A DNA stretch of 64,000 bases. Source: an uncultured Thermoleophilia bacterium (GTDB taxonomy: Bacteria; Actinomycetota; Thermoleophilia; Gaiellales; Gaiellaceae). Where the stretch lies: positions 9,709 to 73,708 of the forward strand of contig CAWBYH010000013.1 in the NCBI GenBank assembly GCA_963792995.1, read 5' to 3'. Made by a program: the position numbers and the translations under genes. Below, piece after piece: positions 7,888-15,761 of the stretch (the stretch's first letter is position 1; each line of letters opens with the position of its first letter). A model generated the notes under the pieces. It ran no database searches. It was not told the origin of the DNA and saw nothing but the letters and a program-made list of their open reading frames with translations.

Positions 7888-9030
7888 ACCGCGGATTCGT
7901 AGGCCGCAAGAGCGGCGGCGCCGGCGGCGCCGCGTTCGACGTCCGCACCCATTTCCACGAGCTGCAACTCGATCGCACCGAGCGCCGTGGTGATGTCGAA
8001 GATATCGACGTAGCCGATGTGCCCGATCCGGAAGAGACGGCCGGCGATGTCGCCGTGGCCCCCCGCAATCGTGATCCCGTATCGGTCGCGAAGCGCGAGT
8101 CGTAACGCAACCGCGTCGATACCGGGTGGGGTCAGGATCCCCGTCAGGACGGCAGCCCCGTCATCGTCCGGCGAATAGAGCTCGAGCCCCATCGCCTTGG
8201 CACCGGCACGGCAGGCTCGACCCAGAGCGACATGACGAGCGTGGACGGTGTCCAGCCCCTCGGCGAGGATCAGCTCGAGTGCTGCGTTGAGCGCGACGAC
8301 CGTGGACGTCGCCGGAGTGAACGGCGTGCTCCCTTTCGCCTGGTTCGTTCGCGCCCGCGCCCAATCCCAGTAGAACCGCGGCAGCGTTGCCTTCGGCCGA
8401 TCGCGCCCAGGCACGCTCGGAGATCGCGGCGAAGGCGAGACCGGGCGGCGTCATCAACGCCTTCTGAGACCCCGTGACGACGACGTCGATCCCCCAGGCA
8501 TCCGTCTCGAGTGGGACTGCGCCGAGGCTCGAGATCGCGTCGACGACCGAGATCGCGCCCGCCTCGTTGCAGGCCGCGACGAGCGACTGGATGTCCGAAA
8601 CCACACCGGTCGACGTCTCGGAGTGCACGAGCAGCGCCACTTCCGCGCCACTGTCGGCGAGCGAACGTGCGACGTCCTCTGCCCGCGGCTGCTCGCCCCA
8701 CTCGTAGTTCAGCGCGACGACCTCGCAGCCGTATGCGGCGGCGAGCTTCTGCCAGCGCGTTCCGAACTCACCGTGCGAGACGACGAGCACGCGCTCGCCG
8801 GGTGAGAGGAGGTTCGCGACCGCCGACTCGAAGGCGCCGGTGCCGGAAGCAGTGAAGACCAGCACCTCGTTCGTGGTGCGGAAGACCTCCTGCAGGCGAC
8901 CGAGCACCTCGGTGAAGACCGCCTTGAAGTCCGGTGAGCGATGGTGGATGACCGGCTCAGCGATCGCGGCCAGCACCTCGGGAGGCACGGGAGTCGGCCC
9001 CGGCGTCAGCAGATAGCGCTTCTTGGGCAT
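7884..9030 (-). CDS. Class V aminotransferase (alanine/serine-glyoxylate type); one frameshift near 8400
   Basis: [28 protein letters not shown] in 8161..9030; TPFTP and FRIGHIG in 7884..8414; overlaps serA start. Confidence 0.88.
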
Positions 9031-9787: not shown

Positions 9788-9878
9788 GCCAGACCAGGCC
9801 GAGCACGCCTGCCACGACGAGCCCGAGCGACAGCTCGGCGATCAGGCCCGGTGTTCCACCATGAGCGAGTGGCATCAT
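9726..9878 (-). CDS. 50-aa single-TM peptide MMPLAHGGTPGLIAELSLGLVVAGVLGLVWLRERRRR... (absent from ORF track)
   Basis: Start overlaps the upstream stop (ATGA); hydrophobic helix followed by an Arg cluster. Confidence 0.65.
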   Translation of the reverse strand: MMPLAHGGTPGLIAELSLGLVVAGVLGLVWLRERRRRSRGERPPEAAMRD

Positions 9879-11227
9879 CCGCGCGAGAGCAGCCAGAGGC
9901 CGCCGACGGTGTAGAGAACCATCAGCGCCAGCATGGCGTACTGGCTGCGGAGGGCATCACTGCGGTCCCGGAAGATCGAGACCGCGCGGTCGTGCGCGAC
10001 GGCGAGGCCTGCGACATGACCGATGACGAGCGATGCAGCCTGTACGTACCAGATCGTGTTCGGCCCGAGAATCCCGATGTTCGGGAGCACGTCGGCGGTT
10101 CCGAAGAGATTCCACCCGCGGCCGAGAGGATCCGAGGCCAGTGGCGCAACGTACTGCCCCTGGAGGACGAACAGCGAGAAGTAGTGGGCGACCGCGTAGA
10201 CCAGTGCGATCGGCACGAGCGAGAGCGCGAACTCGGGCACGAGCGATCGCGGCGCCTGCACCATCGAACGAGCAATCGCGCAGGCTCCGAGGTAGGCGAG
10301 CAGGATGACTGCGATCGCGCCGATGAGGCCGGCCAGGTTGACCCCCGTCACGAGCAACTCGCCCGTTCCCGGCCGATCGAGCACGTAGGGAGCCTCGACA
10401 CGGGCGACCAGGTCCTGCCAGGCAGTCGTCCTGCTGTACCCGTCGAAGCCCACCGAGCCGAGTGCGACGGCGATGAAGACGATCGAGCCCGGCACGTGCT
10501 CCGGGCCGGCGAGGCCCGCGAGCGGAGCGCGGAGTCTGACTCGCCCGGCAGCGACCGCAAGCGGCGCGATTCGCGCGATGTACGCGAACAGGATCGCGAA
10601 TCCCTCCCCACGCTCGACCCACGTCTCCCGTCCGAAGGCGACCATACCGAAGAGCGCCACGTAGGAGTAGAGGCCGATCGCAAACGCCAGGGCCCGCGGG
10701 TTCGACGGGTCGGAGTAGCACAGCTCCATCGCGACGAACGCCAGCAGCATGACCGCACCCGGGTACCGGCCGAACCGCTCCGGGTACGCAGCGAGCGGAC
10801 GCGCCTCCCGGCCTCCCCGCTCCCAGAGCCAGACGAACGCGTCTGCGATTGCACGCCAGGGACTGAGCGCTCTCCAGACGTTGCCGAGCAGAAGCGACAG
10901 GAGCGGCAGGCCGAGCCAGAAGACGACGTACACGAATGTCGGAGCGAGGTTTGTCTGGGGATCGATCGTCCCGACGAGAGCCGAGGCGAGCACGACCGCG
11001 AAGAGGAATACCGAGAGCACCTGAGCGGCGATCCGGAGCGGGCCAAGAGCGAGTGCGGTGAAGGTAGCGCCGAGATCTCGTCCGCGGGAGTGACGCGCGA
11101 GCAGCGGCCTCTTCCAGAGGGAGCCGAGCGCGATGAACGAGACGACGAGGACGACCGCGCCGCCCCAGTAGAACAGCCACGCCGGGACGGGGAGGTCCTG
11201 GACCCCCCCGATCCCATGCGCGAGCAC
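9875..11227 (-). CDS. Multi-pass membrane protein of the actinobacterial family often annotated fenitrothion hydrolase
   Basis: N-terminal AHGIGG.QDLPVP, SLVPIA..Y..AHY, SDPLG.GWNLFG, GHV..L..AHD; family name recalled, not searched. Confidence 0.75.
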   Translation of the reverse strand: MLAHGIGGVQDLPVPAWLFYWGGAVVLVVSFIALGSLWKRPLLARHSRGRDLGATFTALALGPLRIAAQVLSVFLFAVVLASALVGTIDPQTNLAPTFVYVVFWLGLPLLSLLLGNVWRALSPWRAIADAFVWLWERGGREARPLAAYPERFGRYPGAVMLLAFVAMELCYSDPSNPRALAFAIGLYSYVALFGMVAFGRETWVERGEGFAILFAYIARIAPLAVAAGRVRLRAPLAGLAGPEHVPGSIVFIAVALGSVGFDGYSRTTAWQDLVARVEAPYVLDRPGTGELLVTGVNLAGLIGAIAVILLAYLGACAIARSMVQAPRSLVPEFALSLVPIALVYAVAHYFSLFVLQGQYVAPLASDPLGRGWNLFGTADVLPNIGILGPNTIWYVQAASLVIGHVAGLAVAHDRAVSIFRDRSDALRSQYAMLALMVLYTVGGLWLLSRG

Positions 11228-11247
11228 GTTCGGAAGGAGCGAGCCTG

Positions 11248-11601
11248 TCAGGGCCTGACCGTCAGCTGGGCGAGCAAGACGTCCGGGTGATGAAGCTCGA
11301 GCTCGAAGCGGCCCGGCACCTTGGCAACGAACTGGATCACCGTCAGCTTGCCTTTCCTGGGCACCTTCTCGATGTCATAGCCGTGCAGGTGCAGCTCCGT
11401 GCCGACGTTGGTCCAGATCACGAACCGGACGGTGCGACCCTTCTTCACAGACGGTCGCTTGATGCCCTTGACGGGCTTGCCGTCCACGGCTTTGATCTGG
11501 ATCACGACCGGCTTCGCGTTCACAGCTGCCGTGCCGGCGACGGCAGCCGTGGGTAGTGCCACCGCGACGAGCGCGACGGCGACAACGAGGATTCGACGCA
11601 T
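11248..11601 (-). CDS. Secreted cupredoxin-like protein
   Basis: Own SD (AAGGAG), signal peptide MRRILVVAVALVAVALP, ELHLHGYDI and PGRFELELHH motifs. Confidence 0.75.
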   Translation of the reverse strand: MRRILVVAVALVAVALPTAAVAGTAAVNAKPVVIQIKAVDGKPVKGIKRPSVKKGRTVRFVIWTNVGTELHLHGYDIEKVPRKGKLTVIQFVAKVPGRFELELHHPDVLLAQLTVRP

Positions 11602-11654
11602 CTGACTCTCCTTGGTCTCTTCGGGCTGCCCTCGACGGGCAACGAGGAACGAGG

Positions 11655-12177
11655 TCAGGAGGTAGCGGGAGGCCCTCGCCCTGAATGCGAGCTCGCGACC
11701 CCGCAGGCATGCCATGCCTAACGGCACGGCGGGCGCGGCCAGGGCGAACCACCAAAGAGCAGGAGGCGTGTCGCGCCGGTGCTCCGCGGCCAGCTCGTCC
11801 CCGAGCCTGCGCGCGACCTGCCAGACGATGAGTGCGAGCGGAAGTTGCAGTGCGACCCCGAGCCACAGCACGGGACTCGTCAGGAGGAACGGTAGGTGCC
11901 CGGTATGGATCAGGCGCTCGAGGTGCTCTTGCACGACGAACGCGGTGACCGCAAGCGTCGCAAGCGGAACAGGGGAGCTGCGGCGAGCGCGCGCGTCGGT
12001 TGCGATACCGAGGAGGGAGAGCGTCGCGAGGATGAGAACGATCTGCGGCGCGTGGGCGAGATAGCCGTGCACGTCTCCTGCAGGGGTCCCCGAGATCGCA
12101 TACGCGATGACGTGGCCGACGAGCACGCTCGCAGCCGCGAAGGGCACGAGCGTCAGCCAGATCAGCGAGCGGCGCAT
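11655..12177 (-). CDS. His-rich membrane protein, predicted to end ...RGPPATS* after correcting a 1-nt indel near 11680-11702
   Basis: ATG 7 nt after TACAAT; GHVIAY, HGYLAH, QEHLERLIH; RGPP and TGA in the adjacent frame at 11678-11655. Confidence 0.6.
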
Positions 12178-12230
12178 CCGTCTCATTGTACGGGCGCGAC
12201 CTGTCCCACCCGACCGTCCGCGCCCGCGCC

Positions 12231-13649
12231 TCAGGTGAGGAGCCTGGCGCGCACCATCTCGCTCACCGCGCGCGGGTCGGCCTGGCCGCCCGTCTCCTTC
12301 AGCACCTGGCCGACGAAGAACCCGAGGAGGCCCTCCTTGCCACCGCGGTATGCGGCCACCTGACCGGGGTTCGCTTCGATGATCGCGTCGATCACGGGAT
12401 CGAGCTGGGCAGCATCGCTGACGACCTCCTGCGCGAGGAACGGCTCTGCCGAGAACCCGGGCTCGCCGGCATTCGAGATCGCCTCGTCGAAGGCCGCCCG
12501 CGGGATTCGCTCGCGTGCGTTGACGAGCTTCGCGAGCTCGGCCGCATCCACCGAACCCGGATCGACGCCCGCGCCGACAAGGTTGTTCGCGATCACATTC
12601 GAGGCGGCGATCCGGTCGGCGCCTGCCGCGACGGTCGCGGCATAGAGCGCGTCGAGCCCTCCGGTGACGAGCACGAGCGCCCGGTCGAGATCGAGCTCCT
12701 TGCCAAGGCGCACGACCCGCACCGCCGGAGGCTCCGAAAGCTCGGCGCGCAGCCGCTCGATCATCTCGGTAGGTGGCTCCACCGGCACGAGGTCGGGCTC
12801 CGGGAAGTAGCGATAGTCATCCGCCTCCTCCTTGGAGCGGCGGGGCGTCAGCGTGCCCGAACCGGCGTCGAAGTCGAAGGTCTCTTGCTTCACCTCTCCC
12901 CCGGACTCCCAGACCGAGATCTGGCGGGCCGCCTCCGCCTCGATTCCGCGCGCGATGTAGTTGAACGAGTTCATGTTCTTGATCTCGCAGCGGGTGCGGA
13001 GCTCATCGGAACCGGACGGGCGGACGGAGACATTGGCGTCGACCCGCAGTGTCCCCTTCTCCATCTCTGCATCGGAGATCCCGAGCTCGACAACGGTCTG
13101 CCGGAGCAGGAGGAGGAAGCGCTTGGCCTCCTCCGCGGAGCGGATGTCCGGACCGGTGACGATCTCGAGCAGCGGCGTGCCACCGCGGTTGTAGTCGACG
13201 AGCGAGTACTCGGCGCCGCCGATCCGGCCGGACTGCCCACCCATGTGCACGGTCTTGGCAGCGTCCTCCTCGAGGTGCGCGCGCACGATGCCGACGACGA
13301 GCTCACCTTCGGCCATGGGAACTATCAACCTGCCATTAATGCAAGATGGCATATCATATTGTGATATCTGATAGCCCTTCGGAAGATCGGGGTAGAAGTA
13401 GTTCTTCCGTGCGAAGACCGCCCGCGGCGCGATCTCGCAGCCGAGAGCGAGACCGAGCTTCACCGTCCACTCGATCGCCGTCCGGTTCATGACCGGCAGC
13501 GCCCCGGGGAAGCCGAGGCATACCGGGCACGTCTGCGTGTTCTCCGCCGCCCCGTAACCGGCCGTGCAACGGCAGAACATCTTCGTCCTCGTCTTCAGCT
13601 GAACGTGAATCTCCAGCCCGACGACCGTCTCCCACGTTGCCGTGGTCAC
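12231..13649 (-). CDS. gatB: Asp/Glu-tRNA amidotransferase subunit B
   Basis: GLEIHVQL, RKNYFYPDLPKGYQISQ, HLEEDAAK, YRYFPEPDL. Confidence 0.97.
   Translation of the reverse strand: MTTATWETVVGLEIHVQLKTRTKMFCRCTAGYGAAENTQTCPVCLGFPGALPVMNRTAIEWTVKLGLALGCEIAPRAVFARKNYFYPDLPKGYQISQYDMPSCINGRLIVPMAEGELVVGIVRAHLEEDAAKTVHMGGQSGRIGGAEYSLVDYNRGGTPLLEIVTGPDIRSAEEAKRFLLLLRQTVVELGISDAEMEKGTLRVDANVSVRPSGSDELRTRCEIKNMNSFNYIARGIEAEAARQISVWESGGEVKQETFDFDAGSGTLTPRRSKEEADDYRYFPEPDLVPVEPPTEMIERLRAELSEPPAVRVVRLGKELDLDRALVLVTGGLDALYAATVAAGADRIAASNVIANNLVGAGVDPGSVDAAELAKLVNARERIPRAAFDEAISNAGEPGFSAEPFLAQEVVSDAAQLDPVIDAIIEANPGQVAAYRGGKEGLLGFFVGQVLKETGGQADPRAVSEMVRARLLT
13317..13377. other. AT-rich inverted-repeat element inside gatB
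   Basis: CTATCA(13322-27)/TGATAG(13369-74) encloses TGCCAT/ATGGCA and ATATCA/TGATAT; 35 of 54 bases in 13321-13374 are A/T. Confidence 0.7.
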
Positions 13650-15091: not shown

Positions 15092-15390
15092 GCGGATACC
15101 TCGGGGCCATGCGACGGCGGGACACGGAACAGGTCGCCCTCAAGCGCCGGAGCGTTCGCGAGCGCGTCAGCGAGATCGAGGGACGCCCGCGGCTCGTCGT
15201 CGGACCAGACGTTTACGAGATCGAGCGGGTGGGACGTCGGCGGCACGTCGGCGAGATCGAGCTCGGCCACCTTCGAGACCGCCTCGAGGATCGCACCGAG
15301 CTCGAGCGTCAGCCGGTCGGTCTCGTCCTCCGTGAGGTCGAGACGCGCGAGCCGCGCCACGCGAACCACCGTTTCCCTGTCAATCGCCAT
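15088..15390 (-). CDS. gatC: Asp/Glu-tRNA amidotransferase subunit C
   Basis: VARLARL, PTSHP, ANAP, F.VP; first gene of gatCAB. Confidence 0.95.
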   Translation of the reverse strand: MAIDRETVVRVARLARLDLTEDETDRLTLELGAILEAVSKVAELDLADVPPTSHPLDLVNVWSDDEPRASLDLADALANAPALEGDLFRVPPSHGPEVSA

Positions 15391-15425
15391 CCCGCTCCCA
15401 TCCTGTCAGACCCTGGATCACGCCA

Positions 15426-15456
15426 GAAAGACAACGGGCCCCTTCCGGGGCCCGTC
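15426..15456 (-). terminator. Intrinsic terminator of the cold-shock gene
   Basis: ACGGGCCCC-GGAA-GGGGCCCGT hairpin followed by TGTCTTTCT on the minus strand. Confidence 0.8.
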
Positions 15457-15479
15457 GCACGAAGCTCGAATCCGGAAAG

Positions 15480-15686
15480 CTATGCAGCCGCCGTGACGTT
15501 CGCCGCCTGAGCGCCTTTCGGCCCCTGGACGACCTCGAACTCCACCTTCTGTCCCTCGGTGAGGGACTTGTATCCGTCCATAGTGATTGCCGAGAAGTGG
15601 ACGAATACGTCCTCTCCGCCTTCGCGCTCGATGAACCCGAAGCCCTTCTCGTTCGAAAACCACTTGACGGTGCCAATCTCTGACAA
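15480..15686 (-). CDS. Cold-shock protein (CspA family)
   Basis: [21 protein letters not shown]; TTG start with AGGAGG SD. Confidence 0.96.
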
Positions 15687-15761
15687 CGAACGTCCTCCTG
15701 AACCGTGTACGACCCCGCGGACGAAACCGTACGACTTAACGAAGCGGCCAGAACGGTACCG

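Follow-up and report, generated by a model that had tools for sequence, protein, structure and literature searches.

What holds a short run of A/T-rich codons in place inside a housekeeping gene of a GC-rich bacterium? We asked this of gatB, the last gene of gatC-gatA-gatB, in an uncultured member of the Gaiellaceae, within a stretch of 64,000 nucleotides (the window; GenBank contig CAWBYH010000013.1, positions 9,709 to 73,708) that lies on contig C13 of a source genome of 2.54 Mb, 68% GC and 80% completeness. An earlier note, made from the sequence alone, had described an AT-rich triple inverted repeat here and proposed a cis-element hidden in an essential gene. We found codons frozen at set positions of this patch, which supports a hidden cis-element, and a protein-binding site is its best reading as far as sequence comparison can tell; the multi-repeat form in which it had been drawn did not hold up. 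Our preferred reading, to which we assign a probability of about 45%, is that the patch is the operator of a homodimeric regulator lying over an intragenic, probably antisense, predicted promoter. That it is a site at which some protein binds double-stranded DNA, with this or another function, is considerably more probable. We infer the protein reader, its recognition of double-stranded DNA and the initiation by RNA polymerase at this place from comparative evidence.

Rare codons at fixed positions of gatB

Between positions 13321 and 13374, 35 of 54 bases are A or T, in surroundings of about 68-70% GC, and the gatB reading frame runs intact across the patch with the codons that had been quoted for it, so that the abrupt switch to A/T-rich codons was borne out in composition, frame and wording alike. 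When 387,266 in-frame windows of 18 codons from 2,113 crudely called genes were ranked by A+T content, the gatB patch came first (36/54); the runner-up (34/54) was a mis-included LysR promoter region and the next reached 31/54, in agreement with the earlier impression that no other coding sequence in this DNA holds a comparable patch. As a control, the genome's next most AT-rich in-gene patch (L295) was present in none of 27 homologous loci.

The gatB patch, by comparison, was carried by 21 of 21 aligned same-genus loci and by none of the 9 loci taken from the order's other families. Of 118 gatB loci found in the family, 60 were inspected and 58 were not; the element is present in 12 of the 60, all belonging to genera g1, g67, g43, g27 and g32, and absent from the remaining 48, which represent 47 further genera. 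With more loci of g67, g43 and g27 sampled, the collection grew to 82 distinct sequences in the five genera. Scans of viral sequences and of GTDB and metagenome sequences, the last two each limited to 1/64 of the collection, found the element in 3 of 160 anchored gatB loci, one of them in a Gaiellaceae metagenome-assembled genome (MAG; L140). All that four DNA read runs yielded were short contigs from relatives, with mostly 85-95% likeness, and among those listed three span the site. As 76 loci in 74 genomes show the same pattern, the patch is not an assembly artefact. Our counts leave out duplicates, L245 (from an unpublished genome), frameshifted L224, L215 and L251, giving a set of 78 sequences; the set of 76 additionally drops L214 and L223, a locus that lost the element (L228) is counted apart, L250 is excluded from parsimony, and the unpublished genomes G051, G058, G069 and G200 enter only two search tallies.

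Conservation within the patch differs from codon to codon. Tyr93 is TAT in 75 of 76 carriers and 4 of 48 non-carriers, Asp99 is GAT in 73 of 76 versus 1 of 48, the third base of codon 102 is A or T in 75 of 76 versus 1 of 48, and codon 109 is CTA, ATA, GTA or TTA in 65 of 76 carriers; background use in the rest of the same genes was 24/411 for TAT, 119/1006 for GAT, 14/742 for TCT, 11/1545 for CTA and 5/892 for ATA. By parsimony over 75 sequences, third positions changed once at Tyr93 (5-15 times at other Tyr), 3 times at Asp99 (3-13 at like residues), twice at Ser102 (20-21), never at Cys103 (3-12) and 9 times at Gly106 (12-30), and the third base of Asp99 is 96% T as against 4-21% T at other Asp sites. 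Codons 95-97, 100, 101 and 111 turn over freely with a lean to A/T, and Tyr98 stays TAC (67/76) beside the fixed TAT of Tyr93. With rare codons frozen at set positions and few synonymous changes among them, these data indicate that the patch is real and under nucleotide-level selection, as had been suspected, and that this selection is position-specific and not general AT drift.

The element also comes with amino-acid changes, Leu to Ser and Arg to Lys. The Ser of Pro-Ser-Cys had been said to replace a usually hydrophobic residue, and Ser102 is indeed found in 64 of 76 element-bearing loci, whereas 45 of 48 element-less loci have Leu or Ile codons there (the four commonest). One element-less genus (g66, locus L081 of genome G132) has Met-Pro-Ser-Cys at codons 100-103 in GC-type codons; Ser is therefore tolerated there independently, and in the carrier clade it need not reflect adaptation of the enzyme.

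In GatB trees built without the element's codons, four carrier genera grouped at 95% support with g27 unresolved beside them, and a single origin was not rejected (p-AU 0.40, 39 rows). One genome, G206 (L228; G206:C183), has fully GC-type codons 93-110 yet keeps Leu-Pro-Ser-Cys; it is nested within g67 (99% support), and its state is therefore a secondary loss of the element. Another locus, L224 (g27, 51% complete, frameshifted), has a partly degenerate site. A relocated site was sought in G206 and in element-less genera and was not found. These data point to a bacterial housekeeping gene with a second, clade-wide code that freezes rare codons and changes amino acids in a mostly uncultured family, for which 47 related genera without the element and one nested loss are natural controls; G206 in particular is a natural control for finding the protein that reads the site. 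Genomes G165 and G210 hold two gatB copies each, possibly through contamination.

A 31-bp dyad over a predicted promoter

What the relatives conserve is a 31-bp dyad, preceded on its 5' side by two fixed T's, and an AT-rich tail (Table 1). Among 78 sequences, the free positions of the dyad mostly take the base that mirrors the opposite arm about 13337; its spacer varies between species, and the source genome has one inner mismatch. In the tail, third-position A/T reaches 0.26-0.46 at 8 of 10 codons versus 0.04-0.15 in element-less genera; the excess fades on one side only, reaching about codon 120, and is weak in the source genome itself.

Table 1. Features of the gatB locus, in positions of the window, with the strand and the evidence for each.
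Feature	Position	Strand	Evidence
gatB (472 aa; last of gatC-gatA-gatB)	12231..13649	minus	Pfam GatB_N and GatB_Yqey
Conserved core of the element (gatB codons 93-110)	13320..13374	none	conservation among carriers
Soft A/T-enriched tail (codons 111-120)	13290..13319	none	third-position A/T in carriers
31-bp dyad, centre 13337, outer CTA/TAG, inner TTGC-N7-GCAA; likely operator	13322..13352	none	mirrored bases
Left inner arm TTGC (third base of codon 102 and Cys103)	13341..13344	minus	T 76/78, TGC 78/78
Right inner arm GCAA (Gly106 to codon 107); GCAG in source genome	13330..13333	minus	first A 77/78
Upstream TATCA block with fixed Tyr93 TAT (T at 13371, 75/76)	13369..13373	minus	codon conservation
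Predicted antisense sigma-70/sigma-A-type promoter	13330..13357	plus	promoter scan
Sense TANNNT hexamer (Tyr98-Asp99), overlapping the antisense -10	13353..13358	minus	73/76 versus 1/48 element-less
Outer repeat arms of the earlier note	13317-13327 and 13369-13377	none	sequence
TGCCAT/ATGGCA arms	13331-13336 and 13346-13351	none	sequence
ATATCA/TGATAT arms	13351-13356 and 13362-13367	none	sequence

The register of this dyad differs from that of the TGCCAT/ATGGCA pair in the earlier proposal of a triple inverted repeat folding into a three-way junction. All of the repeats and the four TATCA half-sites are present in the source genome, the TGCCAT/ATGGCA and ATATCA/TGATAT pairs sharing base 13351, and such repeats are infrequent, with at least three perfect repeats of at least 6 bp in 20 of 5,000 AT-matched synonymous recodings of the 60-mer (a post hoc test); the structure itself is not what relatives keep. 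The 63-nt piece folds with z -1.65 on the sense and -2.77 on the antisense strand, and a 101-nt context gives z +0.28. Across 76 relatives, 67.5% of the cells of the three-way structure are paired, and its covariation does not exceed that of shuffles (369/500 reach the same level). Of the left hairpin's six pairs, two are kept in just 9 and 7 of the 76 sequences, so that by this comparison two of the three stems are mostly private to the source genome. Low pairing, lack of covariation and the different dyad register rule out the three-way junction as a conserved unit.

A promoter scan placed a putative sigma-70-like promoter on the element, antisense to gatCAB, with -35 CTGCCA at 13330-13335, a 16-bp spacer and -10 TATCAT at 13352-13357 in the source genome; it is the only such match between positions 9000 and 16800 (7.8 kb; 1 found, 0.3 expected). 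In relatives the predicted -35 reads TTGCC[AG] in 56 of 76 and the -10 reads GATC[AG]T in 63 and TATC[AG]T in 9 of 76, with -11A in 73 of 76 and -7T, which is fixed by the protein, in 76 of 76. The fixed T at 13353 (Asp99) is at once the antisense -11A and the -7T of the overlapping sense hexamer, and the tail falls at about -40 to -75 of the antisense promoter, where an UP element would sit. Among promoter-like matches with 16-18-bp spacers in the source genome, -35 hexamers that start with TTGC are common, and the matches peak at a 17-bp spacer (33 versus 8-21). Two other promoter classes were tried and set aside: PafBC-dependent (RecA-NDp) promoters, marked by a hexamer set at a constant distance upstream of TANNNT throughout a DNA-damage regulon and scanned with what we take to be the PafBC motif, had no enriched spacing in the source genome (1-4 hits each), and a class with a 14-bp spacer was not enriched in the genome. 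Overlapping -10 hexamers in this base-level geometry would set two start sites about 18 bp apart. The available text of PMC12825309 gives about 18 bp as the commonest spacing of start sites in bidirectional promoters, and that of PMC11388325 describes synonymous changes that can create antisense promoters inside genes.

A homodimeric regulator would bind the dyad as an operator over this intragenic housekeeping-sigma promoter, which would most likely fire antisense into gatCAB. Repressors commonly bind over the -35 and spacer; a dimer bound here would cover both, silencing the promoter, and could also hinder polymerase passing through gatB. Release of the dimer would then lead to antisense RNA or transcriptional interference and less gatCAB output, which may otherwise be set by read-through from a cold-shock gene. 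In most cases, among carriers and also several non-carriers, gatC follows immediately after that cold-shock gene and a hairpin, with no obvious promoter between them, and an internal brake on gatCAB is therefore plausible. If true, this would be a regulated antisense promoter, conserved and purpose-built, in the operon of a tRNA-dependent amidotransferase. The hairpin before gatC (15390-15720 in the window, and loci L051-L068) is strong and GC-rich with a weak U tract, and a match to the Rfam cspA thermoregulator at 15428-15718 falls below the gathering score.

Several observations weigh against an operator over an antisense promoter. A second copy of the dyad was sought with matrices and none was found, hence no regulon: under a symmetric matrix the genome's own site scored 27.1 and the next-best 12.8 (training median 32.8). 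A pattern search of 41 genomes matched 17, all at gatB except for one match in G026 that falls on two divergent start codons, and a sequence-only model found no other copy in 10 genomes (at most 150 candidates scored per genome); the search for further genomic copies that the earlier note had called for thus found none, and the site occurs once per genome searched. No partner operator was found upstream of gatC in 23 loci, and the region that an antisense RNA would cover shows ordinary codon turnover and no extra constraint. The promoter hit is a single scan match, in which the -10 of the source genome is among the better ones and the -35 weaker; position -12 of the antisense -10 departs from consensus in most relatives, with G in 65 of 76 and the consensus T in 9, the sense -10 comes without any -35, and the fixed T at 13371 is accounted for by neither dyad nor promoter. 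None of the six LysR genes of the source genome has a similar upstream box, the one LysR that was profiled is present with and without the element, and G206 lost the site but retains gatB with the same genes downstream. In addition, an RNA hairpin would fit the many one-sided changes of the dyad that are G-U-compatible on the mRNA strand.

The same dyad can be taken for an internal LysR-type or similar site that acts as a roadblock or looping anchor, or that serves a sense promoter of the downstream genes, antisense transcription being absent in either case; we consider this quite unlikely. Its inner part forms a T-N11-A box (T 78/78, A 77/78), which the available text of PMC4834489 gives as the defining LysR-type motif, and a second, weaker box lies 23 bp away, but T-N11-A has low specificity, being common by chance in AT-rich DNA, and no promoter stands at the LysR distance (-65) from the dyad on either strand. 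In all 14 carriers searched from g1, g67, g43 and g32, gatB is followed within about 5 kb by a membrane-protein gene, usually with a cupredoxin-like partner, whereas all 9 genomes of element-less genera that possess this gene have it at another place, and the genes behind gatB may have a sense promoter here. This co-occurrence is, however, a single evolutionary event, g27 carries the element but lacks those neighbours, and the reverse is true of G206. No partner site was found upstream, nor before the membrane-protein gene in 11 other genomes, and no divergent LysR gene was recognised beside the site among the contig's crudely called genes.

RNA, translation and the chromosome cycle

An element of this kind might act in RNA, as one or two short stem-loops in the gatB message that are bound base-specifically by an RNA-binding protein or nuclease and tune GatB synthesis or message stability. 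We consider this unlikely, while regarding an RNA-binding reader as a real rival to the putative DNA-binding protein. A two-hairpin model on the sense strand, derived from the same 76 sequences on which it was scored, is 90.7% paired compared to 30-47% for slid controls; it accommodates many A-U to G-U changes, and a consensus fold of the sense strand yields the same two hairpins. However, double-sided changes are limited to 2 cells and the scores are also attained by shuffles (81/500 and 243/500), folding energy is no better than that of AT-matched recodings (mean z -0.56, sd 1.12, 78 sequences), the inner pairs exceed a probability of 0.5 in 25 of 78 sequences in a 200-nt context, and Rfam gives no match over the site at E up to 5. 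Compensatory base-pair changes, the mark of a structured cis-regulatory RNA, were sought in the 76 relatives and none were found; the codon alignment that had been proposed as a check thus returned local synonymous conservation but no compensatory pair changes. Codon choice also goes beyond pairing: codon 109 is CTA in 46, CTC in 5 and CTG in 0 of 76, although CTG is favoured and keeps the U-G pair, and codon 100 is the rare CTA in 39 versus CTG in 10. On this evidence we lean towards recognition at the level of double-stranded DNA.

That slow codons cluster here to pause the ribosome during GatB folding or assembly, or that codon 108 is an internal start yielding a shortened GatB, appears very unlikely. 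The codons used are the rarest synonyms, and codon 108 is ATG, GTG or TTG in 71 of 76 and never CTG; but a ribosomal pause needs neither position-specific invariance nor mirror symmetry, and five carriers have no start codon at codon 108. Anti-Shine-Dalgarno pairing before that codon has a median of -1.7 kcal/mol, compared to -3.0 at ordinary internal ATG/GTG and -6.8 at starts picked for a Shine-Dalgarno (SD) word, and the internal start was rejected for want of an SD sequence.

A DNA-binding protein might also use the site without transcriptional output, as a single-copy chromosome-cycle or organisation site that serves timing, titration, SMC unloading or the border of the terminus domain, which we likewise judge unlikely. 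Every genome searched has a single copy of the site, the distance from gatB to dif is 170-400 kb in all 4 carriers where one contig spans both, and in the source genome the right arm is similar to the XerD arm of dif (10/13). In B. subtilis, dif-like XDS sites bound by XerD unload SMC near the terminus, as described in the available text of PMC11840125 and PMC11894783. Yet gatB and dif are 173-182 kb apart in three genomes of element-less genera and 644 kb apart in another (element-less status was read directly for G097 and G084 and judged from genus-mates for G120 and G122), and the position therefore predates the element as ancestral synteny. The source genome has 43 matches of 10/13 to the XerD arm and most carriers reach only 8/13 (40/76), no mirror site was found on the other side of dif, and no DnaA-like box lies within about 350 bp in 76 of 76. 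The locus had also been proposed for placement against the GC-skew inflection; two long contigs (G001 and G004) have no skew change at gatB. More specifically, a clade-specific protein-binding landmark, anchored in an indispensable gene as a safeguard against loss or relocation, some 200-400 kb before the terminus, that would time or organise late replication, segregation or condensin unloading, is improbable; it would be like datA, crtS or XDS in logic and unrelated in sequence, and if true would represent a new kind of single-copy chromosomal landmark. In few-contig MAGs, gatB is often found 15-32 kb from the end of a contig, whether or not the element is present. The gene that holds the L295 patch lies opposite gatB across dif in the eight genomes with all three positions on one contig.

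Site-specific recombination, at a second dif-like or attachment site with 12-bp arms and a 7-bp variable overlap, seems to us extremely improbable, and the recombinase or att role suggested earlier gained no support. Arm-spacer-arm anatomy, a species-variable spacer and single copy number are what such a site would have, and recombination between sister chromosomes would leave the gene intact. However, a canonical dif-like site lies elsewhere in the source genome (G000:C11:108264) and in 5 of 5 carriers, as it also does in 5 of 5 genomes of element-less genera, and the three tyrosine recombinases found in the source genome are an adjacent XerC/XerD-like pair and an integrase beside a tRNA gene. 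An insert interrupts gatB at the site in 0 of 82 sequences, no match to a phage spans the site, the 9 exact hits of the core pattern in viral sequences do not continue beyond it, and 4 gatB relatives on viral contigs are distant and without the element. Copies serving as phage or integrative and conjugative element (ICE) attachment sites, which the earlier note had proposed seeking, were not found in scans of viral and phage sequences, although phages of this family are probably poorly sampled.

Motif scans confirmed that the site matches no canonical dif, parS or DnaA box. The dyad has a 7-bp centre and TTGC/GCAA inner ends, as opposed to the 11-bp arms, 6-bp spacer and inner ATAA/TTAT of the genome's dif. 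For oriC, there are 0 DnaA boxes within one mismatch (76/76), and dnaA lies at C2:177 kb near the skew minimum; for parS, a palindrome located near oriC, nothing within 2 mismatches of the 16-bp consensus occurs anywhere in the source genome, even though the assembly extends at least about 120 kb to either side of dnaA; no search was made for ParB. The adjacent XerC-like and XerD-like genes (L294, G000:C3:113056-114730) are co-oriented.

Known systems and neighbouring observations

Operators inside coding sequences include lacO2 in lacZ, the PurR site in purB and the internal binding site of CatR. The gatB site resembles these as a dyad for a dimeric regulator, putative here, within a reading frame and some distance into the gene; it differs in that no partner operator or regulon was found, in being fixed over five genera and in having changed amino acids. 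With LysR sites it shares T-N11-A, an AT-rich spacer and a weaker box about two helical turns away, but it is not at -65 of a recognisable promoter and not beside a divergent LysR gene. The predicted promoter resembles the intragenic antisense and bidirectional sigma-70 promoters described in the available text of PMC12825309 and PMC11388325 in its overlapping -10-like hexamers, antisense -35 and synonymous-codon origin; compared with those accounts, it is conserved in a clade and not incidental or engineered, has an extra dyad and mostly has G at -12. Like dif/XerCD sites and XDS, the gatB site is single-copy, pseudo-palindromic, a few hundred kb from the terminus and partly like a XerD arm, but its centre is an odd 7 bp, it lies off the skew inflection, and its XerD likeness is not above background. 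Several XDS occur per terminus region. HIP1 and uptake sequences are palindromic words within genes in hundreds to thousands of copies. The gatB site is likewise a palindromic word imposed on codons at a cost in rare codons and amino-acid changes, in contrast as one longer site per genome at a fixed codon position. By analogy, it would work most like operators inside coding sequences and intragenic promoters, and it falls under the definition of no named site tested. Our literature search, which most subscription journals lay outside, found no description of this gatB site.

Behind gatB, at 9875-12186 on the minus strand, lie genes for a small cupredoxin-like protein and a 450-aa membrane protein, neither with a Pfam hit; the cupredoxin-like label is an Atlas lead only, and its 312-aa open reading frame seems to join two parts. 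Both genes moved beside gatB in four of the five carrier genera. Elsewhere in the source genome, repeated operator arrays that overlap promoters, with ATCTTG-like half-sites at 4-bp spacing (G000:C7:5442-5561, C18:38629-38756 and C6:219737-219825), are presumably MarR-like; the half-site resembles the gatB arm, and the spacing differs by 5 bp. The AT-rich in-frame patch L295 (G000:C14:116537-116612) is private to the source genome and lies in a gene that we take from its motifs to be metallophosphoesterase-like. Another AT-rich, partly palindromic in-frame patch (L296, G000:C1:31113-31176) lies near the 3' end of a gene that we take from its sequence to be hisD-like, and is perhaps an internal promoter or operator for the downstream his genes.

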